Shown here piece by piece: positions 5,948-59,970 of a stretch of 64,000 bases of DNA (positions within the stretch are counted from its first letter, which is position 1; each line of letters begins with the position of its first letter). Where the stretch lies: NCBI GenBank assembly GCA_043813915.1, contig JBDRKO010000026.1, positions 66,236-130,235 of the forward strand. The letters are read 5' to 3'. The notes beneath the pieces are model-generated. The model worked only from the letters and a program-made list of their open reading frames with translations. It was not told the origin of the DNA and searched no databases. This stretch comes from Candidatus Omnitrophota bacterium. GTDB lineage: Bacteria; Omnitrophota; Gorgyraeia; Tantalellales; Tantalellaceae. The position numbers were made by a program, and so were the translations under genes.

Positions 5948-6173
5948 AATGAAAGAAAAACTTAAGTTCATAATAGCTAACTGCTGCAGTATAGACACTT
6001 CCGCGGTAGATGATAACGCTAAGGTGAATGAGACACCTAACTGGGATTCTTTCGGGCATCTTCAGATAATGTCATGCGTCGAACAGGAGTTCGGTGTCTC
6101 CTTTGATACCAGGACCATCTCGGCTCTGCTTTCATATAAGGATATACTGGGGTATCTGAAGGAGAACACTTAG
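5931..6173 (+). CDS. acyl carrier protein
   Basis: About 75-80 aa acidic protein with NWDSFGHLQIM, a DSL-like phosphopantetheine attachment motif; alternative start ATG 5949 right after the FkbH stop. Confidence 0.6.
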   Translation: MKGKDEMKEKLKFIIANCCSIDTSAVDDNAKVNETPNWDSFGHLQIMSCVEQEFGVSFDTRTISALLSYKDILGYLKENT

Positions 6174-6194
6174 ACCGGACCGGTATCATATATC

Positions 6195-12006: not shown

Positions 12007-12236
12007 AGAGTGTCAAAGTGTCAGAGTATCAGAGTGTCAGGTTGGACCGATGCGGGAAGAAGGGACAGAGGGAAGAAAGACGAAGGAAGAAGGACGAAGG
12101 AAGAAAGACGCGGGCGGACGTGTAATGTTTTATGTGTGATGTGTAAGGACGAGATTGCTTCCCCCCGTCGCTTTGCTCCGCAAAGCGGAGCAGCGGGGGT
12201 CGCAATGACGGGTGGGAGGAAAGGTTGAAAGGGCGA

Positions 12237-18811: not shown

Positions 18812-19237
18812 GGGAGACGAAAGACGAGGGAAGAAGGACGAGAGACGAGGGAAGAGGGACGACTGTTAAGTATCAAGGAGAATAGTTTAAAAGTTAAAGT
18901 TCTGTGGACACCTTTCCCGGGGTAGTGTAAACCCGACCCTCAAGATGTCCCCAGAATATATTTTTACTGGTTACAGGTAACAGACAAAGGGCGTAAAGCC
19001 TGCCTGTCCTGCCTGCGGCAGGTAAACCGGCAGGCAGGGAGTCACCGCGCTTCGCGCTAGAGTCATCATTCGCTACGCTCATTAGGGTCAGAGAGTCAGA
19101 GGGGAAGAAAGACGAAGGAAGAGAGACGCGGGAAGAGTCGCGGAGAGGAGCACGGTTAACTTGCATTTATATTGAATCTATGATAAACTATACTTTATCA
19201 TAGATTTGTTAAATTGTTGAAAAATGGAGTGTGTTTT

Positions 19238-20464
19238 ATGTCTAAACTTTACAAGAGAAGAATAATCGATGAAATACAAGATTATCTTTTTACGGATGAT
19301 ATTATTGTTTTGCATGGGGCAAGACAGGTGGGGAAAACGAGTATTCTTTACTGGCTTAGGGATCTTTTATCCAGGGAAGAAAAGATAGTTTATTATGTCG
19401 ATCTCGAGGATTCTCGTTTTGTTAGGATATTAGACCAGGGGATCGACAGTTTTGTTGACCATTTAAAAGAGGAGGGGATCTATAGCGAAAAGGAAAGCGC
19501 GCATTCTGAAAAAGTTTATGTTTTTATAGATGAGATCCAGTATTTAAATGACCCTTCTTCTTTTCTAAAATTAACAGCGGATCACCATAAATTTTTGAAA
19601 TTGATAGTTACGGGTTCATCAAGCTTTGATATCCAGAGTAAATTTAAGGATTCCCTTGTTGGAAGAACAGTCGATTTTGAGATATTTAATTTATCATTTA
19701 GTGAGTTCCTTGAGTTCAAAGAGTATGTTTTTAATGAAAAGAATGTTTTTTCGGATAAAAAGGTAGAAGAATTACGGGGTTTGTTCTTAGAATATGTTCT
19801 TTATGGGGGGTATCCCAAGATCGTGTTATCTCCTGAAGTTCATAGAAAGGAAAAATATTTGCAGCAGATCATAGATACGTATGTCAGAAAAGATATTCGG
19901 GACCTTGCCGATGTCAAAGATATCGATAAATTTAACAAATTAGTAGAGATCCTAGCCGCGCAAAGCGGGAATTTATTGAATATAACAGAGCTATCAAATA
20001 CTTGCGGAATAGCAAAGCAGACGGTTGAGAGATATTTGTTTATTTTGGAGAACACTTATATTTTAAAGCAAGTAAGACCCTATCATAAAAATATACGCTC
20101 AGAATTATTCAAAGTCCCTAAAATTTTCTTTTATGATAGCGGGTTAATGCAAATGCTATGGCTTAAAAAGTTACAGAAGGAAGTTCTTGGAAGCGTGTTT
20201 GAGACGGCAGTTTTTTCTGAGTTAGTTAAGAAATATCACAAAAACAGTGTTTTGTATTGGAGAACCGCTGATAAAAAAGAGATAGATTTCATTTTGCGGG
20301 ATAAAAACGGGATCTTGCCTATAGAGGTTAAGTTGAATTTTCAGCAATTTAATTCGTCATCTATCAGGTACTTTAATAAAAAGTACGACAATACAAAATA
20401 TAAAGTGGTTGGTCTAAAAGGAGACTGCGAAGAGGGATCTTATGTTTATCCATGGCAGCTTTAA
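19238..20464 (+). CDS. AAA+ ATPase, DUF4143-type (archaeal ATPase family)
   Basis: Walker A GARQVGKTS, Walker B VFIDEIQ; about 400 aa with C-terminal DUF4143-like region; flanked on both sides by repeat mosaics. Confidence 0.6.
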   Translation: MSKLYKRRIIDEIQDYLFTDDIIVLHGARQVGKTSILYWLRDLLSREEKIVYYVDLEDSRFVRILDQGIDSFVDHLKEEGIYSEKESAHSEKVYVFIDEIQYLNDPSSFLKLTADHHKFLKLIVTGSSSFDIQSKFKDSLVGRTVDFEIFNLSFSEFLEFKEYVFNEKNVFSDKKVEELRGLFLEYVLYGGYPKIVLSPEVHRKEKYLQQIIDTYVRKDIRDLADVKDIDKFNKLVEILAAQSGNLLNITELSNTCGIAKQTVERYLFILENTYILKQVRPYHKNIRSELFKVPKIFFYDSGLMQMLWLKKLQKEVLGSVFETAVFSELVKKYHKNSVLYWRTADKKEIDFILRDKNGILPIEVKLNFQQFNSSSIRYFNKKYDNTKYKVVGLKGDCEEGSYVYPWQL

Positions 20465-20496
20465 TCGGAGAGAACAGTTTAAAAGGTTAACCCATG

Positions 20497-20670
20497 CGCC
20501 CCGGCGAAGCCCCGTGCTTCAGGGCGGGGAAAATATCCGGGGCTCAGGATCAATTGGGAACCCTTCGGCTTCGCTCCCCTCGACAAGCTCCCCTCGGCCT
20601 TGCTCGGGACAGGCGGGGCAGGCAGGGCAGGCCCCGGTCTTTAGACCAGGGTATCGGTGAATTCAGAGCA
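20497..20670. repeat. about 170-bp repeat family J copy 1 (CCCCGGCGAAGCC...GATCAATTGGGAACCCTTCGGCTTCGCTCCCCTCGACAAGCTC...GTCTTTAGACC.GGGTATCGGT.AATT)
   Basis: Second copy at 34783-34945. Confidence 0.7.
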
Positions 20671-20924
20671 CAGGGCATGGCGCATAGTATTAAGAGAGAC
20701 GAAGGAAGAGCTGTTCCCTTGTCATCCCGACCGAACGAAGAGAGCGGAGGGATCTGGTTAAAAGAACATCGGAATCGGGAGATTCCGATGCACCTCGAAC
20801 ATTACGTTCTCGGCGCCTCGATTCGCCTTTGGCTCACTCGGGATGACAGGGTAGGGACATTTTACGAATCACCCCAGCAGATTTCTTCGAAATCTAAGCG
20901 CTGGGGCAGGCGAATTACGAAATC

Positions 20925-22436
20925 ATGACACATAACACATTACACATGACACATAACACAATTTTGCTAACGTTGCTTTTGCTGGCGGGAATACTGCTCT
21001 TCACCAATCTTGGCAATCAGTATCTTTGGCAGGATGAGGCGGAAACAGCGTGTTTGGCGAAAAATACTTTGAAGTACGGCTTTCCAAGGGCATTTGACGG
21101 TGAAAACACCGTAAACCCAAGGATAGGGGAACACTCTCATGTAGGGTTCGGTAAAGATTTCGCATGGCTTTATCATCCTTGGATGCAATTCTACATTACC
21201 GCCGGTTCTTTTTTTCTTTTCGGAATAAGCACATTTACGGCGCGTCTTCCTTTTGCTCTCATCGGACTGTTTAATTTGATACTGCTTTATTTCTTGGCGC
21301 TTAGAATAACAAAAATAAGATTTGTCGCTGTTTGTTCGGTGCTTTTAACCGCGCTTTCCGTCCCGTATCTTCTTATGATGCGGCAATGCAGATATTATGC
21401 TCCGTCGGTGTTCTTTGTGCTTGCCGCTCTTTTTTTCTATTCCCGGTTCAGAGAGAGCAGATCCAACGGGGATCTGGCGTTAACTGCAACGGCTCTGATA
21501 GCTCTGGGATATACGGTGCACGGCATTTTCGTGCCGGTCTATGCGGCTATCGGCATTCATTATATGTTTTTCTCTTTCGACAAAAAGACCTTTCCTCGGG
21601 TGGCGGCGGCGGGAATGTTCACGCTGGCGGCCGTTTTCTGGTGGTTCCTGTTATCCCAAAGTTCGGGGCATATCGCGGTTATTGCTCCGGATAAGATATT
21701 CGGCAATCTTGAGTTTCAGATACGGATGATAAATAAGTATATATTCCCGGTGATGTTTTTCGGGGCAATTTACTGTATCAGAGCCGTCTGGAAGAGGAAG
21801 ATCGGAATTGATCTTATGTCCGAAGAAAAACAGGCTATCAGTTTGATAGGTCTGGTTGTTTTAGTAAGTATTATAACGTTCTGTTTTGTAGAACAAAGGC
21901 ATCTGAGATATTTTGTGTATTTTATACCGTTATTGGCCATGGTACAAGGGCTGATATTGTTGCGTTTAGCCAGGCGGAGCAAGGTGCTTTTGGCGGGATT
22001 CCTAGCGGTCTCTGTTATCACCGGTACTTTTAATATGGGGTACCCGAACTTTCTTTTACCAAAATATATTTACGAGATAACCCATGATTATGACGGACCG
22101 ATAGAAGGCATAGTCAAGTTCCTTGAAAAGAACGCGTCTAAAGGAGATACGGTAAAGATCATATACGGGGATCTGCCGTTGATATTTTATACAGGTCTTA
22201 AAATAGATAATTCCTGGGTCTATGACGATGAGCATATGCCTAGGTGGATAGTCTTTAGACGCGGATGGCATGAGCAGTTAACTAACGATTATTACACGAA
22301 AGTAACTAAAAAATACAAAGAATATGTCCTGGCGTATCCGGATATTTTGTACGAGAACCGGCCGGGCGACCTCGGTTACCACAAATTCGCGACGGACAAG
22401 GAAGCGCCGGGGGTAATAGTGTTCGGGAGGAAATAG
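20925..22436 (+). CDS. ArnT/PMT-like GT-C membrane glycosyltransferase (third paralogue)
   Basis: Polytopic; first loop YLWQDEAETACLAKNT has the DE motif; annotated 5' end runs through an ACACATAACACA repeat module so the true start is probably further downstream. Confidence 0.45.
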   Translation: MTHNTLHMTHNTILLTLLLLAGILLFTNLGNQYLWQDEAETACLAKNTLKYGFPRAFDGENTVNPRIGEHSHVGFGKDFAWLYHPWMQFYITAGSFFLFGISTFTARLPFALIGLFNLILLYFLALRITKIRFVAVCSVLLTALSVPYLLMMRQCRYYAPSVFFVLAALFFYSRFRESRSNGDLALTATALIALGYTVHGIFVPVYAAIGIHYMFFSFDKKTFPRVAAAGMFTLAAVFWWFLLSQSSGHIAVIAPDKIFGNLEFQIRMINKYIFPVMFFGAIYCIRAVWKRKIGIDLMSEEKQAISLIGLVVLVSIITFCFVEQRHLRYFVYFIPLLAMVQGLILLRLARRSKVLLAGFLAVSVITGTFNMGYPNFLLPKYIYEITHDYDGPIEGIVKFLEKNASKGDTVKIIYGDLPLIFYTGLKIDNSWVYDDEHMPRWIVFRRGWHEQLTNDYYTKVTKKYKEYVLAYPDILYENRPGDLGYHKFATDKEAPGVIVFGRK

Positions 22437-22570
22437 AAATAATTGTGTAAGGTGTTATGTGTAATGTGGGGAGGAATTAGTTAAAGGTTAACAAGGGCAT
22501 AGAGCACAGGGCAGAAATGGAGATAGAGGATAGAAACTAGAAACTATATTGGACCATAGACTATTGGATA

Positions 22571-22650
22571 AAGTTACCAGAAACCGGTTACCAGTTACCA
22601 GGGGAAAAGACGTAGATTACTGGTTACAGGTAACAGGCAACTGGTTATTG
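22571..22650. repeat. hairpin-forming intergenic repeat family A (GTTACCAGAAACCGGTTACCAGTTACCAG ... CTGGTTACAGGTAACAGGCAACTGGTTA), MITE-like
   Basis: Four copies: 22571-22650, 26755-26786 (left arm only), 26998-27068, 42588-42655; internal inverted symmetry. Confidence 0.7.
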
Positions 22651-22667
22651 TTAGTAAGGTACAAATC

Positions 22668-22960
22668 ACCCCCTGCAGATTTTTTTGAAATCTAAGCGCG
22701 GGAGCAGGCAAGGCGCCGAGGACGAAATGTTCGAGGTGGGCAAAACGTCCCCGTTTTGACGGAGGTTCCGTTTGCGAGGGAAGCAGTCTAAAAGTCGAAG
22801 GTGGAAGTTCTGAGGACACTCTTCCCGTGGGAGTATAAGCCCTGGCCGAAGAATGTCCCCAGAATATATTTTTATTTCTGTTCACGCTATACGACATTCG
22901 CTATACTCTACACGATATACAAATTAACTGCCATGCGCTGTGCTCTATGCTAATTGTCAC
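22668..22960. repeat. about 300-bp composite repeat, copy 1 (contains AGATTTCTTCGAAATCT palindrome, GACGAAATGTCCGAGGTGGGCAAAACGTCCCCGTTTTGACGGA, GAATGTCCCCAGAATATATTTTTATTTCTGTTCACGCTATACGACATTCGCTATACTCTA)
   Basis: Near-identical to 44761-45105; shorter fragments at 18894-18960, 52340-52360, 52478-52515. Confidence 0.75.
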
Positions 22961-22993
22961 TGTTCACTGCAGACGAATAACACAAGAGGAAAA

Positions 22994-26694: not shown

Positions 26695-27151
26695 GTAGAG
26701 CAGAAGTCAGAAGACAGAGGTTAGAAGTCAGAGTGTAGGGGCACGGCATTATATAGAGTTACCAGAAACCGGTTACCAGTTACCAGAAGAAAGACGAGGG
26801 ACGAGATTGCCGCGTCGCTTCGCTCCTCGCAATGACGGATGGGGGGGTTCCGCTTTCGCTAAGGCTAAGGTGGATAGGCGCAATGACGGGTGGAGATAGA
26901 AGGACGAGATAAAACAAGTATTAAGTGTTAAGTTGTAAGTGTTATGTGGAATGTATGGCGATAATGGCATAGAGCATAGAGCGTAGAGCGTTAAATAAAG
27001 TTACCAGAAACCGGTTACCAGTTACCAGGGAAAAGCCTTAGATCACTGGTAACAGGCAACTGGTTACTTTGAAGAAGTCACTGTTCAAGGCCATGCGCCA
27101 TGCTCTATGCCCTATGCGGTTATTTTTATGTTAGCTACACAAGGAGTTCCG

Positions 27152-28835: not shown

Positions 28836-28905
28836 AGAGGATAGAAGTCAGAGAGACGAGAGACGTGGGACGTGGGAAGAAGGACGAGGAATAGGTTCTA
28901 GCGTG

Positions 28906-29135
28906 AAAAAACAGCCGACCCTTTACATGAAGCAAAAAGAAGCTCCGCAGATGCAATGCAAAGGTCCTTTGGATTCAAGCGTTTTAAGTAGGGAAGCAAG
29001 CGACTTTACGGCACAGATATACGGTAGGGCAGTACTGCTGAATTTAATAGGTAAAAGAGACCAAAACGCTTGACTATGTGATGATAAAAGAACCGGACGA
29101 ACGCGAACCAAACTAAGGCTCGAAGAAGCGCTTAA
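28906..29135. repeat. about 220-bp repeat family K copy 1 (GAAGCAAAAAGAAGCTCCGCAGATGCAATGCAAAGGTCCTTTG...ACGGTAGGGCAGTACTGCTGAATTTAA.AGGTAAAAGAGACCAAAACGCTTGACT) followed by GAACGCGAACCAAAC sub-repeats
   Basis: Second copy at 34362-34575, with additional degenerate GAACG(C/A)GAACCAAAC units to 34700. Confidence 0.7.
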
Positions 29136-29298
29136 CTATGTGATGACAAAGCATCCGTAATGACCGCGAACCAAACGAAGGTATATTATGCGTGATATGA
29201 TAAACAGTATGAAACAGATCATAGAAATGGAAAAACTAGCCGGGGTGGGGGAGATAGTGACAGAGGGTCTAGGGTCGAAAGACGAGGGACGAGTGACG

Positions 29299-29868: not shown

Positions 29869-30300
29869 ACAACCCGAGGCAGCCTGTTCCGGGCCCCTCC
29901 GTTACATGGATAAGTGATGAGTCCGAGGTATCCCATTCCATGCTCAGACAGTCCTCGGCCTTCGGCCTGCGGAACTGCGCGTGGAATGGAATGCCTCGGA
30001 CTCTTTTAAACAGGTTCTAGCGATCTTTGATTAATATTGAGTGTGGCGGGTTTTGGGCCCGTCGAGAACCCAAAACCCGCATTGGAAGATTGTTTCCGTC
30101 ATTGCGACCCCCGCTGTTCCGCTTTGCGGGGCAAAGCGACGGGGGGAAGCAATCACTTGGTGTCATCCCGACCGAACGAAGTGAGTGGAGGGATCTGGAT
30201 AATAACAAATGACAAAGCACAAATGACAATTGAATGACAAAATCCAAATGAAAAAAGAAACGCAAGACCCAAAACCCGCATGCGCATATGAGGCTACAAG

Positions 30301-31032
30301 ATGCTAAAAGAAGTTTTGATAATATTCTTTTTATGTTTTTCATTTTCTATAGAGACCTTTTCTTTAGAGAATAGAGAAATTGAAAAGGCTATGGTAAGAA
30401 TAATTACAAATAATTCTTTAGATGGAAAACATTCTTGTAACGGATTTGCTGTTCAATTTAAGGAGAAAATTTATATTGTAACGGTTAACCATGTTTTGTA
30501 TGACGAGAAACCAGAAATTATGGCAGACATCCTTATCATTGAGGATAAAAATGGTAAGAGAGTTTTTTTTGGGAAGAACGATTTTAAAAAATATTTAACA
30601 CAAAACGCTGGAATACCAGGAGAAAGAGTTGATATTGCTGTAGTTAATTTGCCAAGTATGCATGATCTAGACATTACTCCTATCCTGTTTGATTTTGTTG
30701 CTAATAATGCAATGTTGAGAGACCTTGAAGAGAAATTCAATGCTAATCTTAATAAAAAGGTTATTAGTCGTGTATATTTTTATGACCGCAATTCAGAAGA
30801 AGTGGAAATAGGTAAATCTCTGTTTGTAAATGAACCCGTTTCATCGGGGCAAAGAATGGTAGGGATAAAAGTTTTGGAGGATAAAATAAGGGAAGGAGAT
30901 TGTGGATCCCCGATTGTTTTTTCTTCTAGTGTAATTGGTATTGTTACGACAGAGTCTAAGGGTATTCAGAAAAACAGTATGGGAATTCTCGAAACAATCC
31001 AAAAGGCAGAGAGCAAGCCTTTAAAAACTTAA
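30301..31032 (+). CDS. secreted chymotrypsin-fold (trypsin-like) peptidase with Cys in the nucleophile position
   Basis: Signal peptide; NGFAV...TVNHVL (His), DIAVVNL (Asp), GDCGSPIV in place of GDSGGP; gene visibly AT-rich versus neighbours. Confidence 0.5.
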   Translation: MLKEVLIIFFLCFSFSIETFSLENREIEKAMVRIITNNSLDGKHSCNGFAVQFKEKIYIVTVNHVLYDEKPEIMADILIIEDKNGKRVFFGKNDFKKYLTQNAGIPGERVDIAVVNLPSMHDLDITPILFDFVANNAMLRDLEEKFNANLNKKVISRVYFYDRNSEEVEIGKSLFVNEPVSSGQRMVGIKVLEDKIREGDCGSPIVFSSSVIGIVTTESKGIQKNSMGILETIQKAESKPLKT

Positions 31033-31139
31033 TTTTCAGCAAAGGGGACACCTTCCTCGCTACGCTCGGGAGATGTCCCCATATGTCGAGTTGTAGGACG
31101 GTTTTCAATGCGACAAACTCTACAAACACAACAAACTCT

Positions 31140-33143
31140 ATGAACCCAACAAACCCCAAATACGTCGAAGTCATCACATCGCTGCCTATCGACCGGACCT
31201 TTCAGTATAGGGTCACGGGCGAAGAAAAGTATCCTCCCGCTATAGGTAAACGCGTGCAGATATCTTTCGGGCCCGCCAAACGTATCGGGTATATAGTGAA
31301 AATGGAAACAGAGCCACAGGTAGCCGACCCTAAACCTCTCCTGGATATTATAGACGAGGAACCTATATTCTCCGAAGAGATGATAACCCTGGCCGGATGG
31401 ATAAAAGACAATTATTTCTGTTCATGGGGTGAAGCTCTTGAAGCGATGATTCCGGGACCGCTTAAGCACGGTAAAGTGGAAATGACCACACGCGTGCATG
31501 AAGAAAGGGACGCGGTACTCGCAACATTCCCTCATGATCCTAACCTGGAACAACAGGATGTGATCGATGCCATAGACCGGTGCATAGACGGACGCAAACA
31601 TGAGGTTTTTCTTCTGCACGGTATAACCGGGAGCGGAAAGACCGAGATATATCTCCGGGCAATGGAAAGCGTTCTCGCGAAAGGAAAGACAGGGGTTATT
31701 CTGGTGCCGGAGATATCTCTTACGCCTCAAACGGTCGAGAGGTTCATTTCAAGGTTCGGGGATAAAGTGGCCGTGTTTCATTCAAAGATGCTTCAGAGTG
31801 TAAAATTTTCAGAATGGAAACGTATAAAGTCGGGAGAAGCGCGTATAGTAGTTGGCCCGCGTTCGGCCGTATTCAGCCCGCTGGAGAACCCGGGATTATT
31901 CGTTATAGACGAGGAACATGAACCGAGTTACAAACAGGACGATGTGCCCAGATACCACGCGCGTGAGGTTGCCATAGAAAGAGCCAGGATAAACGGTGCT
32001 CCGGTCATCCTGGGGACTGCCACACCTTCGCTTGAATCATATTTCAAAGCCGTCAATGGGGAATATACTTTGGTGGAGCTGACACAGCGCATAAGCGAAA
32101 AAGAGCTTCCCAGGGTAAAACTGGTCGATATGAGGATGGAATTCGATACCAGAGTGGGCAGGACCGTGATCTCAAGGATAATGGCAGAGGCATTACGTAC
32201 CGACATTTTCAAAAAACAGCAAGCGCTCATATTCCTTAACCGGCGGGGATTTTCGACTTTTGTCAGCTGTAGGAAATGCGGACATATTATAAAATGCACA
32301 AAGTGCGATTCACCGCTGGTATTTCACCGCGCGAAAAAACAGCTTATCTGTCATTACTGTAACAGAAGAGAAGATCCGCTTAAGATATGTCCGCTCTGTA
32401 ACAAGGATTATCTCATATACCACGGAACGGGAACACAAAAGGTCGAAGATGAACTCGCGAAGATATTGCCGGGCGCGCGCATAGAACGCATGGATTCCGA
32501 TACGATGGCTAAAAGAGGGTCGCATGAAAAGGTGTTAAAGGCGTTCAAGGAACATAAGACGGATATTATAGTAGGGACACAGATGATAGCCAAAGGACTG
32601 GATTTCCCGAAGGTCACGCTTGTCGGAGTGGTGGCGGCGGACGCCAATCTTAATCTTCCGGATTTCAGGGCCAGCGAGAGGACTTTCAATCTTATAACAC
32701 AGGTCGCCGGACGCGCGGGAAGAGGAGACTTGGGCGGCGAAGTTATAGTTCAGACATATACACCCGAGCATTACGCGTTAAAATTCTCCATAAAACACGA
32801 TTATCCCGGGTTTTATTCAAAAGAGATAGAATACCGGCGTGAACTTCTTTTTCCGCCTTTTACGAACATTGTCAAAGTGACATTGAGAGGGAGAAAAGAG
32901 GAAAATGTGATCAAGAGTATAGAGAGATTAGCGGAGATGCTGAAAAAGAAGCTGACTAAACCCGACATGATAGGTCCGGCCCCGTCTCCTATGACGAAAC
33001 TCAGGGGTTATTACAGATGGAATATCCTCTTGAAAGCCAAGGGGAGAGAAGGTATAGTAAAAGAGCTTAAGGCCGCGCTTAAAGGTTTTAGAAAAGGGCC
33101 GGGAGTGATCATGGCGGTGGATGTGGATCCGATGAGTTTGTAA
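31140..33143 (+). CDS. priA: primosomal protein N' (replication restart helicase PriA)
   Basis: N-term VEVITSLPIDRTFQYRV, Walker A GITGSGKTE, DEEH box, Cys4 zinc ribbon CRKCGH...CTKCDS...CHYC...CPLC. Confidence 0.85.
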   Translation: MNPTNPKYVEVITSLPIDRTFQYRVTGEEKYPPAIGKRVQISFGPAKRIGYIVKMETEPQVADPKPLLDIIDEEPIFSEEMITLAGWIKDNYFCSWGEALEAMIPGPLKHGKVEMTTRVHEERDAVLATFPHDPNLEQQDVIDAIDRCIDGRKHEVFLLHGITGSGKTEIYLRAMESVLAKGKTGVILVPEISLTPQTVERFISRFGDKVAVFHSKMLQSVKFSEWKRIKSGEARIVVGPRSAVFSPLENPGLFVIDEEHEPSYKQDDVPRYHAREVAIERARINGAPVILGTATPSLESYFKAVNGEYTLVELTQRISEKELPRVKLVDMRMEFDTRVGRTVISRIMAEALRTDIFKKQQALIFLNRRGFSTFVSCRKCGHIIKCTKCDSPLVFHRAKKQLICHYCNRREDPLKICPLCNKDYLIYHGTGTQKVEDELAKILPGARIERMDSDTMAKRGSHEKVLKAFKEHKTDIIVGTQMIAKGLDFPKVTLVGVVAADANLNLPDFRASERTFNLITQVAGRAGRGDLGGEVIVQTYTPEHYALKFSIKHDYPGFYSKEIEYRRELLFPPFTNIVKVTLRGRKEENVIKSIERLAEMLKKKLTKPDMIGPAPSPMTKLRGYYRWNILLKAKGREGIVKELKAALKGFRKGPGVIMAVDVDPMSL

Positions 33144-33184
33144 GTAGTAAATAGTGAGTCGGGAAGGGTAGAATAGGAAATAAA

Positions 33185-33335
33185 GAGGAAACCGCTCTGT
33201 AGCGCTATGTCCAGTGCTCAGACAGTCCTCGGAATATGTCGGAGGCTGGTCGATTCCGGGAGAAATCGACACTTCCTCGGACATTGCGTCCTCGGTCGTG
33301 CAACTGCGCTCTGGACATAGTGCTACAGAGCGTGC
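33185..33335. repeat. about 150-nt nested inverted-repeat structure upstream of fmt (outer arms CCGCTCTGTAGCGCTATGTCCAG / CTGGACATAGTGCTACAGAGCG)
   Basis: Outer 22-bp arms at 33192-33214 and 33310-33331 with several inner hairpins; shares TGCTCAGACAGTCCTCGG module with 29935-29960. Confidence 0.6.
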
Positions 33336-33419
33336 GAGTATATGCGCGTAACAAACATAAAAAGAGCGATGGCTTATGCCGGGACCATCGAGATCCCGGC
33401 ATAAGCAACTGGAATAATA

Positions 33420-34351
33420 TGAAAATAATATTTTTTGGAACAGGAGATTTCGGGCTATCTACCCTTAAACGGCTCATAAAGAGCGGACATGACATTGCCG
33501 CGGTGGTAACGCAGCCTGATAAGAAGAAAGGACGGGGGATGGGGGTCCATCCTACGCCTGTTAAGGCATTGATAGAGGATACCATGCCGGGAACGGATGT
33601 GTTACAGCCGGGAAAACTTACCGGAGAGTTTATTGAGGATATAAAGCGTCCGGAAGCCGATGTTTTTGTGGTAGTGGATTACGGTAAGATCCTGCCGGTA
33701 TCCGTGCTGGAACTGCCTAAACGTTACTGTATAAACCTGCATCCGTCGCTTTTGCCTAAGTACAGAGGTTCGTCGCCCGTGAATCAAGCTATTCTTAACG
33801 GTGACGCGGTAACGGGCAATACGGTCATAAAGATTAACGAACGGATGGATGCCGGAGAGATACTGCTTCAGGAAGAATTCATTATTGGTAAGGATGAGGA
33901 CGCGCTGAGTTTGTCCGAAAGATTATCCGCTCACGGCGCGGAACTTATCATCAAGACGCTGGATATGATAGCCGCGGGAAAGGAAACTCTTACCGCGCAG
34001 GATGAGAGTGAGGCCACCTACGCGGCCAAACTCAAAAAAGAGGACGGTGAGATCGATTGGACCCGAACAGCCGAGGAAATAGACAGAAAGATCAGAGGTC
34101 TTAAACCCTGGCCCGGAGCGTTTACTTATATAAACGGAAAGATGTTAAAGATCCTTGAAGCAGAGATAGCACCTGCACAAAAAGACATAATGCTTGCAGG
34201 TACTGTTTTCCTTGATAAGGAGAGATTACTTGTATCTGCCTCGGACAAGGCGATATATGTAAAAATACTTCAGCTTGAGGGGAGAAAAGCAATGTCTGCT
34301 GAAGAATTTATGAGAGGGTGGCCCATAAAGAAAGGTATGATTTTGGGGTAG
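33420..34351 (+). CDS. fmt: methionyl-tRNA formyltransferase
   Basis: MKIIFFGTGDFG N-terminus, HPSLLPKYRG, C-terminal Fmt domain; upstream ORF-track extension is repeat/structured DNA. Confidence 0.85.
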
Positions 34352-34361
34352 ATCCAAAAGA

Positions 34362-34700
34362 GAAAAAACAACTGAACCTTAACCTGAAGCAAAAAGAAGC
34401 TCCCCAGATGCAATGCAAAGGTCCTTTGCCTTCAAGCGTTTTAAATAGAAGGACCAGCAACTTTACGGCACAAATATACGGTAGGGCAGTACTACTGAAT
34501 TTAACAGGTAAAAGAGACCAAAACGCTTGACTGTGTGCTGACAAAAGAACCGGACGAACGCGACCAAACTAAAACGAGACAAAACGTTTGATATCACTTT
34601 AACGAAACAACTATATGAGCGCGAGCCATATGAACGAGAACCAAACTTAGACAAGTTACTAAACACGGAGCCGGAACAATCGCGAACCAGACGTGAGGTT
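34362..34700. repeat. repeat family K copy 2 plus degenerate GAACGNGAACCAAAC sub-repeats
   Basis: Aligns with 28906-29180. Confidence 0.7.
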
Positions 34701-34782
34701 CGGATAAAAATTGCAAAACGACCCTTCAGATGTTCTTGCCCATCACATCTTCAGGGTTAATTTTTACCCATTCGCCCCGGCG

Positions 34783-34945
34783 AAGCCTAGTGCTTCAGCG
34801 CGGGGGAAATAGCCGAGGCTCTCCTCGCGGTGCTCGGGACACTGCAGGATCAATTGGGAACCCTTCGGCTTCGCTCCCCTCGACAAGCTCGGGGCAGGCA
34901 GGGCAAGCAAGCCCCAGTCTTTAGACCGGGGTATCGGTAAATTGA
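34783..34945. repeat. about 170-bp repeat family J copy 2
   Basis: Aligns with 20497-20670. Confidence 0.7.
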
Positions 34946-34969
34946 CTGCGTAAAAATTAAGGAGAAAAT

Positions 34970-36352: not shown

Positions 36353-36359
36353 AAAATTA

Positions 36360-36415
36360 GGGACGTTTCCCTATTAATAAGGCAACAGAAAGCAAGTTAA
36401 CAGGGAAACGTCCCC
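36360..36415 (+). terminator. long stem-loop after porin gene (13-bp GC-containing stem gggacgtttccct / agggaaacgtccc)
   Basis: Perfect 13-bp inverted repeat immediately after porin stop codon; no strong T-run, so intrinsic-terminator function uncertain. Confidence 0.4.
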
Positions 36416-36461
36416 AATTTCCGTTCTTACTTTAGGATATACAGTTTATTTAAAAAACATG

Positions 36462-36490
36462 TTGAACGATAAGGTTCTTAAGTATATAAT
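36462..36490 (+). promoter_or_regulatory. sigma70-type promoter upstream of gap (TTGAAC-17-TATAAT)
   Basis: TTGAAC at 36462-36467, 17-nt spacer, TATAAT at 36485-36490, about 190 nt upstream of the gap start. Confidence 0.5.
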
Positions 36491-36660
36491 ACACACTTCA
36501 TAAATTCAGTTCGTAGCCGGTAGTCCGGGGTCCGTAGTCCGGAAAGAGCTCAACACTAGGCAATGGAACAGTAAGATTTAGTCCATAACTGAGAGTTTGT
36601 ATTTTAGATACAAAAACACTTATTTTAAAGTGCAGACTACGGATCAGTTAAGGACCGTGA

Positions 36661-37680
<1,020 letters not shown>

Positions 37681-38944: not shown

Positions 38945-39143
38945 AGTGTCAGAGTGTCAAAGTGTCAGAGTGTCAGAAAAAAAAGAAGGAAGAGAGACGA
39001 GAAACGAGGAATGTCTTCCCAGTGTCATCCCGAGCGAGCAGAGTGAGTCGAGGGATCTGGATCGCTGGATCGGAAATCTTGACTCTTTGGATTTTTTAAA
39101 TACGTGACCATATTACCATTTAAAAACTAGGAACGGAGAAAAA

Positions 39144-39926: not shown

Positions 39927-39932
39927 AAAGAT

Positions 39933-42045: not shown

Positions 42046-42698
42046 GGGAGAAAGAAATAGAAGTCAGAAATCAGAAGACAGAGGTCAGAAGACAGAGGCC
42101 AGAGGGAAGATAGACGAAGGACGAAAGAAGAAGGACGAGGGAAGAGCTGCTCTCTTGTCATTCCGACCGATTTCTGTGAAGCTTTAGCGAAGCAGAAGAG
42201 CGGAGGAATCTGGTTAAACACAAGAAAGATCCCTCAACTCGTTGCACTCGTTCGGGATGACAGAGCGGGGGCAGGCAAAGGAGATATTGGGTAGAAGATC
42301 CTGAAGGAGAGTCAAAGAGTCATCGCGCTTCGCGCTAGAGTCAGAGAGTCAGGTTGGACCGAGGTGGAAATAGAGTTATGTGTGATGTTATGATGAGGAA
42401 GTGGTTCTTGTTGCTCGTCATTGCGAACTCCGAGCTATGCGAGGGGTGAAGCAATCCCGGATCTTATAGAGATTGCTTCGTCGCCTGCGGCTTCTCGCAA
42501 TGACGGAGTGAGTGCGAATCACGACTTATGCTGTGCCCTTTGCTCTGTGCTCTATGCTGTTAAAGGTTCGTTAAGCAAAGTTACCAGAAACCGGTTACCA
42601 GTTACCAGAAGAACGACGTGATTTGCTGGTTACATGTAACAGGCAACTGGTTACTATTTGTTAGGCACAAATTACCGCTCGCAAAAAAACGATACATT

Positions 42699-43682
42699 AT
42701 GAAAAGCTATATTATCAAACGATTATTTACGATCATCCCCATGATGATAGGGATCTCTTTCATCATGTTCGTTGTTATGCATCTGGCTCCGGGAGACCCG
42801 TCCAGCATGCGGTACGGCATGAACCCTGAAGTCTCAGGCAGTGCCAGAGCTGAATTCAGCAAAATGTACGGGCTGGATAAACCCGTTACGGTGCAGTATA
42901 TGCTTTGGGTAAAAAGGATACTGGCTTTGGATTTCGGGAGGTCGCTCACGGATGATCAGCCTGTTATGAAGAAAATAGCGGAACGTCTTCCGGCCACGCT
43001 GCTGCTTCAGTTCTCATCTATGGTGCTTATTTTCGGTATTGCCGTTCCGTTGGGGATATTCAGCGCGGTCAACAGGAATTCATTTTTTGATAAGGGAACT
43101 ACGATCCTTGTTTTTATAGGATACGCGACGCCGTCTTTCTGGCTGGCGCTTCTTATGATATTACTTTTCGGCGTAAAGCTTCAGTGGCTGCCGATATCGG
43201 GTATGAACCCATGGTATACCGAATATATGAGCGATTTTGATAAAGCTAAGGATCTTATCCGGCACATGATACTTCCTGTCACGGCCACGGCCTTCGGCTC
43301 CTTAGCGGCCTTATCCAGGTATTCAAGGTCCAGCATGATAGAGGTCATGGAAGAGAAGTATATTCTTACGGCAAGGGCAAAAGGTCTTACCCGCGGAAGG
43401 ACAATATTCGTGCATGCTTTGAAGAACGCGTTACTGCCCATGGTGACGATAATGGGATTATCCTTACCGGCCCTTATCTCGGGAAGTTTTATTTTTGAGA
43501 CTATTTTTTCATGGCCCGGGATGGGGCGTTTGGGATATGAGGCCGTGATGAACTATGATTATCCGGTCGTCATGGGAGTGGGTATAATCGCTACACTACT
43601 GACGCTTATAGGTATTTTTGTTTCGGATATACTCTATGCGGTAGTTGATCCGAGGATCAGACTGGATATAAAAAGGGGCTAG
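42699..43682 (+). CDS. ABC peptide transporter permease (DppB/OppB-like)
   Basis: 6 TM, EAA-like loop ...ARAKGLTRGRTIFVHALKNA; ORF-track 5' extension runs through repeat family A. Confidence 0.8.
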   Translation: MKSYIIKRLFTIIPMMIGISFIMFVVMHLAPGDPSSMRYGMNPEVSGSARAEFSKMYGLDKPVTVQYMLWVKRILALDFGRSLTDDQPVMKKIAERLPATLLLQFSSMVLIFGIAVPLGIFSAVNRNSFFDKGTTILVFIGYATPSFWLALLMILLFGVKLQWLPISGMNPWYTEYMSDFDKAKDLIRHMILPVTATAFGSLAALSRYSRSSMIEVMEEKYILTARAKGLTRGRTIFVHALKNALLPMVTIMGLSLPALISGSFIFETIFSWPGMGRLGYEAVMNYDYPVVMGVGIIATLLTLIGIFVSDILYAVVDPRIRLDIKRG

Positions 43683-44575: not shown

Positions 44576-44760
44576 AGGTCAGAGGATAAAAGAAGTATCA
44601 GAGTGTCAAAGTGTCAGAGTGTCAGAGATGAGCTAAGGAAAAAAGACGATGGACGAGAAAGAGTTTTAAGTGTTATGTGGGATGGAAATAGTTAAAGGTT
44701 AACAAGGGCATAGAGCACAGGGCACAGCGCATAGCATTAAGAAAGACGAAGGAAGAAGGA

Positions 44761-45105
44761 CCCCGGCAGATTTCTTCGAAATCGAAGCGCGGGGGCAGAC
44801 GAAGCGCCGAGGCACCGAGGCACCGAGGACGAAATGTCCGAGGAAGTACTGAGGCCTCCCGGCCGAAGTGACGAAATGTCCGAGGTGGGCAAAACGTCCC
44901 CGTTTTGACGGAAGTCCCGTTTGCGAGGGAAGCAGCCTAAAAGGCGAAGGTGGAAGTTCTGAGGACACTCTTTCCATGGGAGTATAAGCCCTAGTCGAAG
45001 AATGTCCCCAGAATATATTTTTATTTCTGTTCACGCTATACGACATTCGCTATACTCTATACAATATACGAATTAACTGCCATGCCCTGTGCTCTGTGCG
45101 CTATG
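44761..45105. repeat. about 340-bp composite repeat, copy 2 (with internal CGAGGCACCGAGGCACCGAGGAC tandem expansion)
   Basis: Aligns module-for-module with 22668-22960. Confidence 0.75.
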
Positions 45106-45127
45106 CTCTTGAAATGGGTCACTAAAT

Positions 45128-50039: not shown

Positions 50040-50075
50040 AAGAGTAGGGGCACGGCATGCCGTGCCCCTACATTA
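50040..50075. repeat. palindromic element GTAGGGGCACGGCATGCCGTGCCCCTAC (family H), terminator-like, after leuB
   Basis: Perfect 14-bp inverted repeat; further copies at 55358-55395 (after argC), 52055-52085 (after truA, 1 mismatch), half-site 26738-26755. Confidence 0.7.
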
Positions 50076-55413: not shown

Positions 55414-56604
55414 ATGGAAAATTTTAAACTTCCGGAAGGTTTCTTGGCTAACGGGATACATTGCGGGTCCAAGAAAAAGAGGAAGGACCTTGCTCTGATA
55501 TTCTCGGAAAGACCGTGCGCTATAACGGCCATTTTTACCAGGAATATCGTTAAAGCGGCGCCTGTACTATTGGCCCAAAGGCAGCTGAAGAGGGCCGGTC
55601 ATATACGCGGGGTGCTGATCAATTCGGGCAACGCGAACTGCATGACCGGGAAACGCGGGATAGAGGATGCCGAGAAAATGGCGTACGGAATGGCGGAGGT
55701 GCTGGGTGTAGGAAAAAATGAGATACTTGTTTCTTCCACAGGCATAATCGGAGAGTTCATAGATCTTAGGCCAATTAAAAAAGGGATGAAGGAGATAGCT
55801 AGAGGCCTATCGGCGGATGGAATACTGGATGCCGCGGACGGGATCATGACAACGGACAGGTTCCGGAAAATATCGCAGCGTACTTTTATGGCGGGAGGCA
55901 AAAAAATACACATGGCAGGTATAGCCAAGGGCGCAGGAATGATCAAGCCCAATATGGCTACTATGTTATGCTACATAATGACGGACGCGGATATTTCGCA
56001 GAAAGCTATGAAGGCGGCTCTTGCCGAAAGCGCGGACAGGTCTTTTAACGCTGTTTCGGTGGACGGGGATATGAGCACTAATGATACGGTCATGCTTTTG
56101 GCGAACGGGGCTTCGGGCAACAGGACCATAAAATACAAGGGTAAGGATTTTGATGTTTTTAAAAAGAACCTGTGTATGTTATCGGACGATCTGGCGAAAA
56201 TGATAGTTTTGGACGGCGAAGGAGCTCAAAAATTCATAGAGGTCCATGTAAAGAGGACAAGGACCAAGAAAGAAGCTAAAAAAGCGGCGGAAGCTATAGC
56301 AAGTTCTTTGCTGGTGAAATGTGCTGTGCTGGGAGGGGATCCGAATTGGGGAAGGATAGCTTCATCGGCGGGCGCAAGCGGGGTGAAATTCGACCCGGAA
56401 AAGATAGAAATAAGTCTTGACGGAGTGACGTTCTTCAAGAACGGAAAGACCCTTAAAGAGGTGGACCGAAAAAACTCGGCGGTCTTTAAAGGCAAAGATG
56501 TCAAGATAGAGGTCGTTCTTAATACGGGAAAAGAGGAAGCTAAATTCTTTTCCTGCGACATATCGAAGAAATATATAACGCTTAACTCGTATTACACGAC
56601 GTAG
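55414..56604 (+). CDS. argJ: bifunctional ornithine acetyltransferase / N-acetylglutamate synthase
   Basis: Autoproteolytic ATML site (MATMLCYIMTD); start ATG 55414 with agaggaa SD downstream of palindromic terminator. Confidence 0.85.
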   Translation: MENFKLPEGFLANGIHCGSKKKRKDLALIFSERPCAITAIFTRNIVKAAPVLLAQRQLKRAGHIRGVLINSGNANCMTGKRGIEDAEKMAYGMAEVLGVGKNEILVSSTGIIGEFIDLRPIKKGMKEIARGLSADGILDAADGIMTTDRFRKISQRTFMAGGKKIHMAGIAKGAGMIKPNMATMLCYIMTDADISQKAMKAALAESADRSFNAVSVDGDMSTNDTVMLLANGASGNRTIKYKGKDFDVFKKNLCMLSDDLAKMIVLDGEGAQKFIEVHVKRTRTKKEAKKAAEAIASSLLVKCAVLGGDPNWGRIASSAGASGVKFDPEKIEISLDGVTFFKNGKTLKEVDRKNSAVFKGKDVKIEVVLNTGKEEAKFFSCDISKKYITLNSYYTT

Positions 56605-56702
56605 TGCTGTGTGCTGTGTGATGTGTGATGTGTAATGTGTAATGCGCGAAATGAAAGGAACATAAAACTTAACACATGACACATAAAACAAGCAGGTAAT
56701 TC

Positions 56703-59777: not shown

Positions 59778-59873
59778 ATAGAGGCTAGATGGTGAACGGG
59801 TAATCGCATAGGGCACAGAGCATAGGGCATAGGGAAGATAGGGTCAGAACGACAAAGCACAAATGACAAATGA

Positions 59874-59970
59874 CCCCGCCCTTTTAAAGGGAAAAGGGCG
59901 GGGTTAATTCGGCCGTATAACTTATGTTCGTTATCACTCCATAAGTTATGGCCTCATTAAGGAGAATGTA
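59874..59970 (+). promoter_or_regulatory. conserved structured leader (GC hairpin + ATAACTTATG/CATAAGTTAT hairpin + RBS) upstream of argG
   Basis: 56 nt identical to the argH leader (61262-61317); related copy upstream of leuC (46931-47044). Confidence 0.5.

Follow-up and report, generated by a model that had tools for sequence, protein, structure and literature searches.

An intergenic gap built from repeat modules

The gap at 18812-19213 separates a family-9 glycosyltransferase gene from a downstream ATPase gene in a 64-kb stretch of DNA, here called the window. The DNA comes from a member of the Omnitrophota with Ca. Aadella gelida as a close relative. Omnitrophota is an abundant phylum that is almost wholly uncultured and known mainly from fragmented metagenome-assembled genomes. 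The first feature of the gap, a purine-rich heptamer array (E), begins directly after the TAG stop codon of the glycosyltransferase gene and is followed by the units listed in Table 1. The T unit has further copies at 22798-22874, 44947-45023, and 52448-52514, and its 23-nt 3' core occurs exactly in the relative L024. The GAGTCA array is interrupted by a 14-nt hairpin, CCGCGCTTCGCGCT, at 19045-19058 and by an 18-nt insert at 19066-19083, and the arrangement of GAGTCA with CGCGCTTCGCGCT recurs at 42312-42352. The last stretch, 19156-19213, is not among the repeat modules. Folded whole, the gap is weakly better than shuffled sequence (z = -1.4).

Table 1. Features of the focal gap (18812-19213) and of other module-bearing gaps in the window
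Position	Strand	Features	Remarks
12007..12224	+	F (AGTGTCAG, octamer), E, L (GTGTAAT), R (CGTC-type hairpin, reverse orientation)	
18812..18862	+	Purine-rich heptamer array E (GACGARG/GGAAGAR, ~7 units)	Focal gap
18890..18966	+	T unit: hairpin GTTCTGTGGACA...TGTCCCCAGAAT, then ATATATTTTTA	Terminator-like
18967..18986	+	Lone 3' arm of module A (CTGGTTACAGGTAACAGACA), without partner 5' arm	
18998..19035	+	P hairpin, GCCTGCC-type units (GCCTGCCTGT / ACCGGCAGGC)	z = -2.2
19039..19137	+	GAGTCA-type array, interrupted, then second purine-rich E array (19102-19137)	
19156..19213	+	AT-rich promoter-like stretch, 16-nt palindrome (19175-19206)	Before AAA_14/DUF4143 ATPase gene
20465..20960	+	GC-rich X/Y repeat of ~180 nt, D composite hairpin, B, lone L' array	D composite hairpin 20717-20851, z = -4.2; L' array 20924-20960
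22437..22993	+	Nested: L/L' around I/I' around A hairpin, B, T, U	I/I' arms 22497-22513 / 22934-22950; A hairpin 22572-22647; whole fold z = -2.9
26695..27130	+	G, half H, lone A5 arm (26757-26786), E, two R, L, I/I'	I (26961-26989) and I' (27095-27123) enclose complete A hairpin (26999-27068)
28836..29187	+	G/E arrays right after stop codon; 220-nt repeat (28892-29111)	220-nt repeat also at 34349-34568 and L006 6594-6821
29869..30300	+	S element (29919-30003), V hairpin, R (forward), D, M array (AATGACA)	
33144..33418	+	Long-form S element (33193-33332), 13-bp hairpin (33372-33406)	priA-fmt gap
38945..39143	+	F, E, D	Gap after pgk; independent Logan assembly 100% identical
42046..42700	+	G grading into E, D, GAGTCA + Q, inverted R doublet, I', A hairpin	13 in-phase GA-starting heptamers (42060-42150); D holds internal insert, plus its closing arm; inverted R doublet 42416-42505, z = -4.2; A hairpin 42579-42655
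44576..45127	+	F, E, L, K; I (44703-44736) and I' (45078-45111) around E, B, T, U	230-nt unit in common with 22721-22950, 94% identical, ending in T hairpin and U-tract
50044..50071	.	H palindrome GTAGGGGCACGGCATGCCGTGCCCCTAC, GTAG-tagged REP layout	9 nt past stop codon
52014..52620	+	G, H, B, L, N array (GACTATA) and inverted partner, O (TCACGAA), E, R, T	
56604..56700	+	GTGATGT/GTGTAAT array and complement CACATAA (L/L' hairpin)	z = -2.6
59778..59970	+	I array, M array, GC hairpin, W leader hairpin before argG	Sister copy 61141-61319 before argH; further W 46965-47037 before leuC

The modules recur in most larger gaps of the window

We matched 15 module consensus sequences to both strands of the window, allowing up to 20% mismatches. 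This gave 62 matches compared with 0.1 expected from first-order Markov random windows, and the 22-mer of module A occurs four times where none is expected. With 31 module patterns, 113 matches were intergenic and nine coding, although intergenic DNA makes up only 13% of the window; most of the nine involve short patterns or sit at the edges of genes. Likewise, 11-mers occurring at least three times cover 26% of the intergenic bases versus 5.6% of the coding bases, and the window contains at least 60 direct-repeat families. At least one module is present in 17 of the 21 gaps of 100 nt or longer; the four module-free gaps are 5948-6194, 36353-36678, 48860-48979, and 54106-54344. These data bear out the sequence-only reading, which had described the gaps as different combinations of one small set of modules: every module was present where it had been quoted, and the string of modules differs from gap to gap with the same set in use. 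An ORF of 144 amino acids that overlaps one gap (20494-20928) has no Pfam match and was taken as spurious.

The feature that unifies the modules is a 7-nt periodicity. TRF detected 38 separate period-7 arrays in the 64 kb, and the lag-7 match fraction is 0.341 in the gaps compared with 0.250 in coding DNA. We rejected the idea of one continuous 7-nt lattice per gap, as block-phase randomisation revealed gap-wide coherence in none of them (p = 0.08-0.9). In-phase runs are local only, such as the GA-starting heptamers at 42060-42150.

The modules can be grouped as degenerate tandem arrays, GC-rich palindromes, and longer structured units. The arrays have units of 7 nt, a few of 8 nt, and each heptamer array is dispersed as a whole block; often an array is accompanied by its reverse complement, and the two together make up a long, imperfect hairpin or a nested bracket (A5/A3, I/I', L/L', N). 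The palindromes are of the REP type and carry the tag GTAG (H) or CGTC/TGTC (R, D), and the longer units comprise T, S, W, and the 180-230-nt repeats. Neither the 7-nt periodicity nor the composition of many modules as two arms of nested inverted repeats had been mentioned in the sequence-only reading.

In eight gaps the arrays begin 1-11 nt past a stop codon. The asymmetric modules in the window all lie on the gene strand (gene strand:opposite strand, A5 4:0, B 4:0, E 8:0, F2 8:0, T 4:0), where gene direction and replication direction are inseparable, and R and D are present in both orientations. Module A on the other contigs runs in the direction of the adjacent genes in only about two-thirds of cases; contigs of mixed gene direction hold too few modules to part transcription from replication direction.

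Several modules are predicted to fold

The sequence-only reading had proposed structure prediction for module hairpins. The modules indeed folded better than shuffled sequence, with z = -7.6 for S, -6.8 for H, -5.0 for W, -4.2 for both the R doublet and the D composite, -3.4 for A, and -2.8 for T. A wobble test for RNA-level selection gave 20 G:T versus 14 A:C mismatches in stems, a difference that is not significant; the stem mismatches are mostly purine:purine, resembling a strand composition bias. Overall, the plus strand folds ~5% more stably than the minus strand, with three GC-rich gaps folding better on the minus strand. Consensus promoter and terminator sites showed no enrichment over shuffled sequence.

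Two elements, S and W, stand out as specific candidates for new structured RNAs. In the S element, a multi-helix core is conserved whereas the outer stem varies and is fully compensated, and the position of S after priA is kept in several genera. The W element is a conserved hairpin with a Shine-Dalgarno leader before leuC, argG, and argH, and its stem carries compensatory changes. Rfam 15 returned no match at gathering score over the whole window. A scan of three gap-rich stretches at E-values up to 1 gave only two sub-threshold matches to miRNA precursors, which we dismissed as chance matches to long hairpins.

Independent assemblies reproduce the mosaic

The sequence-only reading had expected the modules to occur genome-wide and would have given up its proposal had they been an assembly artefact confined to this window. 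Contigs of the same population that end near or within repeats might invite such a reading: its short-read contigs often do so, with L097 beginning at 19009 and L002-L004 matching at positions 44-120, near a contig end. Nevertheless, JGI, ENA, and Logan assemblies contain four of the gaps at 99.6-100% identity. Over 36950-41230 the identity of L096 (Logan) is 100%, L097 covers 19009-20574 with one SNP, L004 and L015 (JGI) are 99.6-99.9% identical, and L001 (ENA) is 99.9% identical over 30005-34243. Moreover, 13 further contigs of the population carry modules at other loci, together with period-7 arrays. That the mosaic is a chimera or assembly artefact of this contig is thus refuted, and we give the idea virtually no credence.

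Strains and genera differ by heptamer units and cassettes

The comparison with close relatives that the sequence-only reading had suggested revealed lineage-specific inserted blocks, and its proposal of active proliferation or recombination agrees with the single-unit indels and cassette swaps found between related strains, which directly attest to continuing change. Over 2.2 kb, the differences between L004 and the window are one SNP and an L array that is longer by one 7-nt unit in L004. In L003, both arms of the A hairpin contain additional heptamer units and another cassette lies between two A5 copies, and in L001 the S allele is replaced. Between near-identical strains, 7-nt unit indels are the only length differences found, and they therefore offer strain-level markers. 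At a larger distance, the window holds a block made up of R, D, M, and another V copy (~30090-30290) that the Ca. Aadella locus L018 lacks at the corresponding site. In L013 and L017, L-type heptamers are inserted into the loop of module A.

Dense heptamer arrays were also found in several other Omnitrophota genomes. The density of period-7 arrays is ~1.6 per 10 kb across other Omnitrophota loci (389 kb) compared with 0.26 per 10 kb across non-Omnitrophota controls (815 kb). Eight of 26 window heptamer units were found exactly in other Omnitrophota (1.7 expected), a modest signal of word sharing given that the controls share three exact units; allowing one mismatch, the count was 19 of 26 against 17.8 expected and the measure does not discriminate. 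The exact 22-mer of module A had no match in 185,579 species-representative genomes, which therefore do not include the source species, and this exact sequence is lineage-specific. Searching the PLSDB plasmids by blastn with 1.6 kb of modules also gave no match.

Interpretation

The mosaic is real and striking, and it is a variant of repeat systems known from Escherichia coli, Neisseria, and cyanobacteria, not new biology. On balance, we favor the view that it is the Omnitrophota counterpart of REP/BIME/NIME and STRR repeats, drawn from a genome-wide non-coding repertoire and shaped by slippage, nested insertion, and recombination. The comparisons between strains and between genera show these processes: slippage adds or removes single heptamer units, modules insert into or beside existing ones, and homologous recombination between dispersed copies swaps the DNA between them. 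Because the modules start at the stop codon and follow the gene strand in the window, they would be co-transcribed with the upstream gene, and in the transcripts they probably fold into stem-loops after stop codons. Both the function of the modules and the enzyme that mobilises them are inferred. Like REP/BIME elements, the nested stem-loops would most likely protect 3' ends, terminate transcription, or insulate co-directional genes from one another, and a RAYT-like single-strand transposase, with its gene in another part of the genome, would spread the REP-type members.

Instead of being selfish or structural DNA, the mosaic could be a post-transcriptional regulatory code in which heptamer arrays are binding sites for sequence-specific RNA- or DNA-binding proteins, each heptamer word recruiting a factor; the GGA-rich purine arrays might be occupied by a protein of the CsrA, S1, or cold-shock type. 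Consistent with this, the E arrays present a GGA motif about every 7 nt, arrays sit at fixed spots right after stop or just before start codons, and whole imperfect arrays show unit-by-unit conservation across ~20 copies. Some exact words are also common to Omnitrophota genera whose PriA is only 71-85% identical, and a protein-binding role has been proposed for TAACTGA repeats (PMC4679880). However, no candidate binding protein was identified, the flanking housekeeping and cell-surface genes are unrelated and show no functional pattern, unit number drifts among near-identical strains, and some of the words turn up in the controls as well, which makes this reading unlikely in our judgment. We consider it less likely still that the gaps encode small-RNA genes or cis-regulatory RNAs (leaders, riboswitch-like elements) with the repeats as paralogous copies. 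The conservation of S and W and the 230-nt unit ending in a hairpin and U-tract are what such RNAs would look like, but neither Rfam scan gave a meaningful match, and the explanation covers S, W, and T only, leaving heptamer arrays, lone arms, and REP-type palindromes, which make up most of the mosaic, unexplained.

The arrays might also act as contingency loci, in which unit number switches neighboring surface-polysaccharide genes by phase variation. Many affected gaps do lie within the glycosyltransferase/LPS gene cluster, and single units are polymorphic between near-identical strains. The same arrays, however, flank gap, pgk, priA, rplM-rpsI, leu, and arg genes; they are short (3-7 units) and imperfect, and most follow stop codons and are not found in promoters or coding regions, so that phase variation appears very improbable. 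A further speculative reading, which we hold to be a long shot, treats the heptamer arrays as pairing words of a conserved vocabulary. Intergenic cassettes would be bracketed by a word and its complement, which would join distant segments of a transcript or of single-stranded DNA and could guide RNase III-type processing or recombination in nearly every intergenic space. Such a vocabulary may be common to Omnitrophota genera, and the same architecture may exist in unrelated high-GC bacteria (e.g. L100). If true, it would amount to a widespread undescribed organisation of bacterial intergenic space and not to ordinary selfish repeats.

Because the biology has precedents, the finding does not come as a surprise; its use is to extend the description of known repeats. 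It has practical consequences as well: dense dispersed repeats help to explain why short-read assemblies of Omnitrophota break at intergenic regions, and several contigs of this population end in modules.

Comparison with known repeat systems

The sequence-only reading had held that intergenic regions of this kind are not typical of well-studied bacteria. This was overstated, as BIMEs, NIMEs, and the heptamers of cyanobacteria and Beggiatoaceae are close precedents (PMC3733652, PMC3116915, PMC4679880, PMC4692102). GTAG-tagged REPs are palindromic stem-loops of 20-40 bp that end in GTAG (PMC3733652), and they go with a RAYT (Y1 transposase) gene that has the REP at its flanks. Module H (GTAG-GGGCACGG-CATG-CCGTGCCC-CTAC) spans 28 nt, in which the tag adjoins an 8-bp GC stem with a 4-nt loop, and folds at -25.9 kcal/mol; judged by sequence, it appears to be such a palindrome. 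It is unusual in being fully symmetric, with the tag on both strands and itself paired. The window holds three full or near-full copies and one half copy, all intergenic; those beyond the copy at 50044 lie at 55363-55390, 52051-52078 (imperfect), and 26737-26751 (half). Two copies start 5-9 nt and one 38 nt past a stop codon. Exact copies are present in L030, L031, and L034, where each of three follows just after a gene end. H thus has multiple extragenic copies like REPs, which lie mostly downstream of ORFs, where the neighboring genes are co-directional or convergent. We found no transposase or RAYT domain in the ~30 window proteins scanned, and the genes beside the H copies in L034 are of ordinary size, unlike RAYTs, as judged without a domain scan.

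CGTC REPs have a terminal CGTC/TGTC/CCTC tag followed by a stem that starts with A, T (Di Nocera et al. 2013, PMC3733652); the stem is 8-9 bp long and closes a 4-5-nt loop, and the tail is short and CCA-like (PMC3733652). The tag and the AT-starting stem can be recognised in the predicted hairpins of R (CGTCATTGCGA; CGTC-ATTGCGA...(A)AGCAAT-C) and D (TGTC-ATCCCGA...GGGAT-CTGG), one D copy having the compensated change ATTCC/GGAAT. In contrast, their closing stems are 5-7 bp, the tails are CAC/CCC/CTGG, and the loops are far longer (15-35 nt) and often hold a second hairpin. R and D resemble the CGTC superfamily in layout only and are not to be assigned to families CGTC-1 to CGTC-4. The sequence-only reading had allowed that correspondence to a described repeat family would tell against its proposal, and for part of the mosaic such a correspondence exists: H, R, and D have a REP-type layout, and H and D occur exactly in unrelated contigs of 54-66% GC. 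No REP family from this phylum was reported in the literature searched.

Like the REP superfamilies, the palindromes here are GC-rich and extragenic, lie mainly after ORFs and between co-directional genes, often form inverted dimers, and are found in several species. As in the BIMEs of E. coli and the dRS3-based NIMEs of Neisseria, REPs of alternating orientation are clustered with other repeat families (PMC3733652), and the clusters combine one set differently in each gap. Unlike in those descriptions, the mosaic consists mostly of heptamer arrays, and because it lacks the motifs specific to E. coli and Neisseria, we regard it as an analogue of BIMEs and NIMEs and not as the same family. REPINs are REP doublets that form hairpins, with stronger conservation of doublets than of singlets (Bertels and Rainey 2011, PMC3116915). 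Module A, with 32-nt arms that are ~75% complementary and a 17-nt spacer, and the R doublet fit this shape of inverted arms around a short spacer forming a long imperfect hairpin. Doublets occur beside decayed singlets, such as the lone A arms at 18967 and 26757, and clusters arise by insertion into or beside one another, as with REPINs; the A arms, however, are tandem heptamer arrays and not single REPs. MITEs have conserved terminal inverted repeats of 15-30 bp and target-site duplications. The S element shows the opposite, its outer arms varying between copies around a conserved core.

Heptamer repeats were reportedly described in cyanobacteria, as STRR, by Mazel et al. in 1990. TAACTGA repeats are known from Beggiatoaceae, cyanobacteria, and Bacteroidetes (PMC4679880) and GGGNATC repeats from Xanthomonas and Nostoc (PMC4692102). 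The arrays here are short, intergenic, and of period 7, as those are; in both cases tandem 7-nt units form arrays of 2-8 copies that are strongly intergenic, spread over the genome, enriched by gene ends and between co-directional ORFs, and variable in unit number. No tandem copy of TAACTGA, CCCCAGT, TTGGTCA, CAACAGT, GGGAATC, or GGGGACT is present here, and the nearest unit is TAACTGG, the complement of the module A repeat unit. The small dispersed repeats (SDR) of Nostoc, hairpin units of 14-27 nt inside other repeats, are said to have been described by Elhai et al. in 2008. By layout only, they resemble CCGCGCTTCGCGCT inside the GAGTCA arrays at 19045 and 42326, which may likewise be mobile, to judge from these two similar contexts only. 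Unlike the described heptamer repeats, dozens of different degenerate units coexist in one genome, fixed imperfect blocks are dispersed, and arrays are commonly paired with their reverse complements into hairpins and nested brackets. Together, these comparisons extend both the REP superfamilies and the heptamer repeats to a new phylum, in which the two are joined in a single nested-hairpin architecture, a finding relevant to the function of heptamer repeats.

Recurrence of the intergenic modules within and beyond the window

Every motif quoted in the sequence-only reading was found in its place, and the claim that the gaps are combinations of one shared module set held up, with 17 of the 21 gaps of at least 100 nt carrying a module. 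Allowing up to 20% mismatches, we counted 62 matches to 15 module consensus sequences in the window, compared with 0.1 in Markov-random windows. For 31 patterns, 113 matches were intergenic and 9 coding, intergenic DNA making up just 13% of the window. The window contains at least 60 direct-repeat families. No Rfam family was matched by the gap modules, and no PLSDB plasmid carried them.

Confinement of the motifs to this stretch, as by faulty assembly, had been named as evidence against the pattern. An assembly artefact was excluded by the recurrence of the gaps in Logan, JGI, and ENA contigs. One Logan contig (L096) is 100% identical across 36950-41230, and another (L097) spans 19009-20574 with one SNP; two JGI contigs of the same population (L004 and L015) show 99.6-99.9% identity to the window, and an ENA contig (L001) shows 99.9% across 30005-34243. 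The modules also extend to other loci: a 22-mer of module A occurs in 16 contigs of one JGI metagenome, 3 of which overlap the window, and the remaining 13, from other loci, additionally carry modules T, I, L, R, and H and long repeats. Two longer dispersed repeats also occur: a 220-nt, AT-richer element in which a TTGACT...GAACCAAAC segment is duplicated internally and a GC-rich element of ~180 nt whose minus strand gives the better fold.

The window is ordinary chromosomal DNA (~87% coding, ~46% GC, steady positive GC skew), with nearly all genes on the plus strand. These are housekeeping and cell-envelope genes (glycosyltransferases, priA, fmt, gap, pgk, leuCDB, asd, rplM-rpsI, argG, and argH). 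Among 185,579 species-representative genomes, the nearest PriA belongs to a Candidatus Aadella gelida MAG (85% identity), followed by some 25 further Omnitrophota MAGs at 54-81%. The window accordingly comes from an uncultured Omnitrophota bacterium of a species outside this representative set. In two relatives, priA is preceded by a conserved non-coding stretch of ~120 nt (GCCTTTCA.ACTC...GCTTAAGCTATGGCCCACCAGATGGAAGGGAACACTTAAGACA...) that the window lacks, with only 50 nt between its trypsin-like gene and priA. The AAA_14/DUF4143 ATPase gene 3' of the gap 18812-19213 lies in a GC dip (0.375 versus ~0.46), is preceded by its own AT-rich palindrome, and may have been horizontally acquired and inserted into the glycosyltransferase cluster. 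The 1.2-kb "gap" 52014-53216 contains a small plus-strand ORF with a weak PrlF/AbrB-type antitoxin match (25.8 bits, under the Pfam cut-off of 32) that may be an unannotated gene; a minus-strand ORF at 53202-53807 was rejected as spurious because it overlaps rplM (53217-53690).

Coordinates of features in the window and in other contigs
Feature	Window	Other contigs
S element	29919-30003; 33193-33332	L001 282-391; L012 7773-7914 (-); L018 4694-4828; L021 2202-2278; L022 9974-10058; L024 12022-12115; L026 11995-12079
W element	46965-47037; 59892-59964; 61242-61314	L022 9879-9928; L027 11986-12045
H palindrome after stop codons	50044; 55363	
220-nt repeat	28892-29111; 34349-34568	L006 6594-6821
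~180-nt repeat	20487-20640; 34763-34957	L012 3533-3678
Heptamer-array hairpins and adjoining H		L100 1970-2035; 4098-4160; 2184-2211
Conserved stretch before priA		L018 5638-5760; L041 3300-3420
AAA_14/DUF4143 ATPase gene (GC dip)	19001-20464	
AT-rich palindrome	19175-19206	
Small ORF (+)	52634-52870	

A seven-nucleotide period as the common thread

What the modules share, overlooked in the sequence-only reading, is a 7-nt periodicity of the gaps. The match fraction in the gaps was 0.341 at lag 7, 0.322 at lag 14, and 0.288 at lag 21; coding DNA showed period 3 alone. TRF found 38 separate period-7 arrays and 10 period-8 arrays, whose units are numerous and degenerate (heptamers GACGAAG/GGAAGAA, CAGAAGT, AGTTACC, GCATAGA, AAGTGTT/GTGTAAT, AATGACA, GACTATA, and TCACGAA; octamer AGTGTCAG). 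The imperfect arrays are scattered as fixed blocks; AGTTACC-AGAAACC-GGTTACC-AGTTACC, for one, recurs unchanged in ~20 copies.

Period-7 arrays number 5.9 per 10 kb in the window, compared with 1.6 in other Omnitrophota loci (389 kb) and 0.26 in non-Omnitrophota controls (815 kb). The other Omnitrophota loci are patchy, nine having 3-16 arrays per 10 kb and others none, and 8 of 26 window units recurred exactly in them, against 1.7 expected. An unrelated IMG/VR contig of 66% GC (L100) carries inverted heptamer-array hairpins (GAGGACT... / ...CCTCAGT) by gene ends, adjoining an H palindrome, and the heptamer-hairpin architecture may thus be wider than Omnitrophota.

Nested hairpins and REP-like palindromes

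Many modules are paired arms of inverted repeats and therefore form nested hairpins. The 5' and 3' arms of A pair with each other; the partners of GCATAGA arrays (I) are TCTATGC arrays (I') lying 100-420 nt downstream, those of GTGTTAT arrays (L) are ATAACAC arrays (L'), and GACTATA arrays pair with their own complement. Gap 22437-22993 folds as L[I[A, B, T]I']L' with z = -2.9 relative to shuffled sequence. Single modules fold well beyond shuffled sequence (z = -7.6 for S, -6.8 for H, -5.0 for W, -4.2 for the D composite and the R doublet, -3.4 for A, and -2.8 for T). The gap 18812-19213 is a looser string (E, T, a lone 3' arm of A, P, a GAGTCA array with small inserts, and E again) that folds weakly as a whole (z = -1.4).

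A second class of modules, H, R, and D, is REP-like. Like members of the GTAG REP superfamily, H (GTAGGGGCACGGCATGCCGTGCCCCTAC) combines a GTAG tag with a GC stem and a short loop. The CGTC/TGTC tag and AT-starting stem of R (CGTCATTGCGA...AGCAATC) and D (TGTCATCCCGA...GGGATCTGG) match the CGTC superfamily, defined by a CGTC tag and a stem starting with AT (Di Nocera et al., PMC3733652), but the loops of R and D are far longer than those of described CGTC families, so the likeness is one of layout alone. Both H copies listed in the table lie 5-9 nt 3' of stop codons, and H copies likewise follow gene ends in an Omnitrophota relative (L034). Copies of H, R, D, T, and W that are 87-100% identical are present in Omnitrophota genomes with a PriA identity of just 71-81%, and H and D have exact matches in IMG/VR contigs (L098, L099, and L100-L103) whose GC content of 54-66% means that they must come from unrelated organisms. 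Because neutral DNA would not keep identity over such distances, these units are either under selection or still spreading. No RAYT or other transposase was found within the window.

Two further elements merit follow-up of their own. The S element has a conserved core (CG-UGCUCARACAG, an inner hairpin or 60-nt domain, and then AACUGCGCG-CGG) closed by an 18-22-bp outer stem whose sequence differs in every copy while pairing is kept; in a comparison of three copies, 14 of 47 pairs showed compensated changes. In five Omnitrophota genomes S directly follows priA, and in three it precedes the trypsin-like gene. It matches no Rfam family and is a candidate for a new structured RNA or hairpin element. 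W, a GC hairpin followed by a hairpin GGCCGUAUAACUUAUG...CAUAAGUUAUGGCC and a Shine-Dalgarno sequence, lies immediately 5' of leuC, argG, and argH. The leuC copy shows compensatory stem changes, and W, 87-92% conserved in two further genera, may act as a leader of genes for amino-acid biosynthesis.

Turnover and possible function of the mosaic

Unit slippage, cassette exchange between dispersed copies, and insertion are the routes by which the mosaic changes. Across 2.2 kb, the differences between L004 and the window come down to one SNP and an additional ATGTGTA unit in an L array of L004 (window 22456). In a further contig (L003, 277-360), both arms of the A hairpin are longer than at window 26999-27068, the 5' arm by a GGTTACC unit and the 3' arm by one unit. 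Gain or loss of a single 7-nt unit inside arrays was the sole length difference found between near-identical strains. The stretch flanked by the same two copies of the A 5' arm holds R, L, and I modules in the window but a duplicated T unit in L003. In L001, another copy of S, whose stem differs, has taken the place of the window's S element at 29869-30004, and a recombination boundary is visible at the end of the neighbouring gene. A block of ~200 nt (R, D, M, and a further V copy) is missing at the same site in Ca. Aadella, where the flanking S and V scaffold is kept. L-type heptamers lie within the module A loop in L013 and L017, and a 14-nt hairpin splits GAGTCA arrays at two loci. The mosaic observed in the sequence-only reading is confirmed; its interpretation, repeat proliferation or recombination or else dense binding sites, is supported in part.

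In eight gaps, arrays start 1-11 nt past stop codons, and every asymmetric module in the window is oriented with the genes. These positions fit modules that would be co-transcribed with the genes and act as 3' stem-loops, most likely as stabilisers, terminators, or insulators, a role of the sort proposed for REP/BIME elements and REPs in general. The wobble-asymmetry test was not significant, the folding advantage of the plus strand was small, consensus terminators were not enriched, and in other contigs module A is co-directional with genes in only about two-thirds of cases.

Relation to known repeat systems

The nearest precedents are E. coli REP/BIME and Neisseria dRS3/NIME, which are mosaic intergenic clusters of tagged palindromes (PMC3733652), REPINs, which are hairpin-forming inverted doublets inserting beside one another (PMC3116915), and the heptamer repeats of cyanobacteria, Beggiatoaceae, and Xanthomonas (PMC4679880, PMC4692102), none of whose described units occurs in tandem in the window. 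The Omnitrophota literature that we searched makes no mention of intergenic repeats. Novelty seems to lie in the combination: degenerate heptamer words, numbering in the dozens, are spread as blocks, pair into nested hairpins, and occur together with REP-type palindromes, and no part of this seems to have been described in Omnitrophota. The pattern can help with genome assembly and strain typing and bears on what heptamer repeats do; beside these precedents it is striking and well supported, yet no new category of system.
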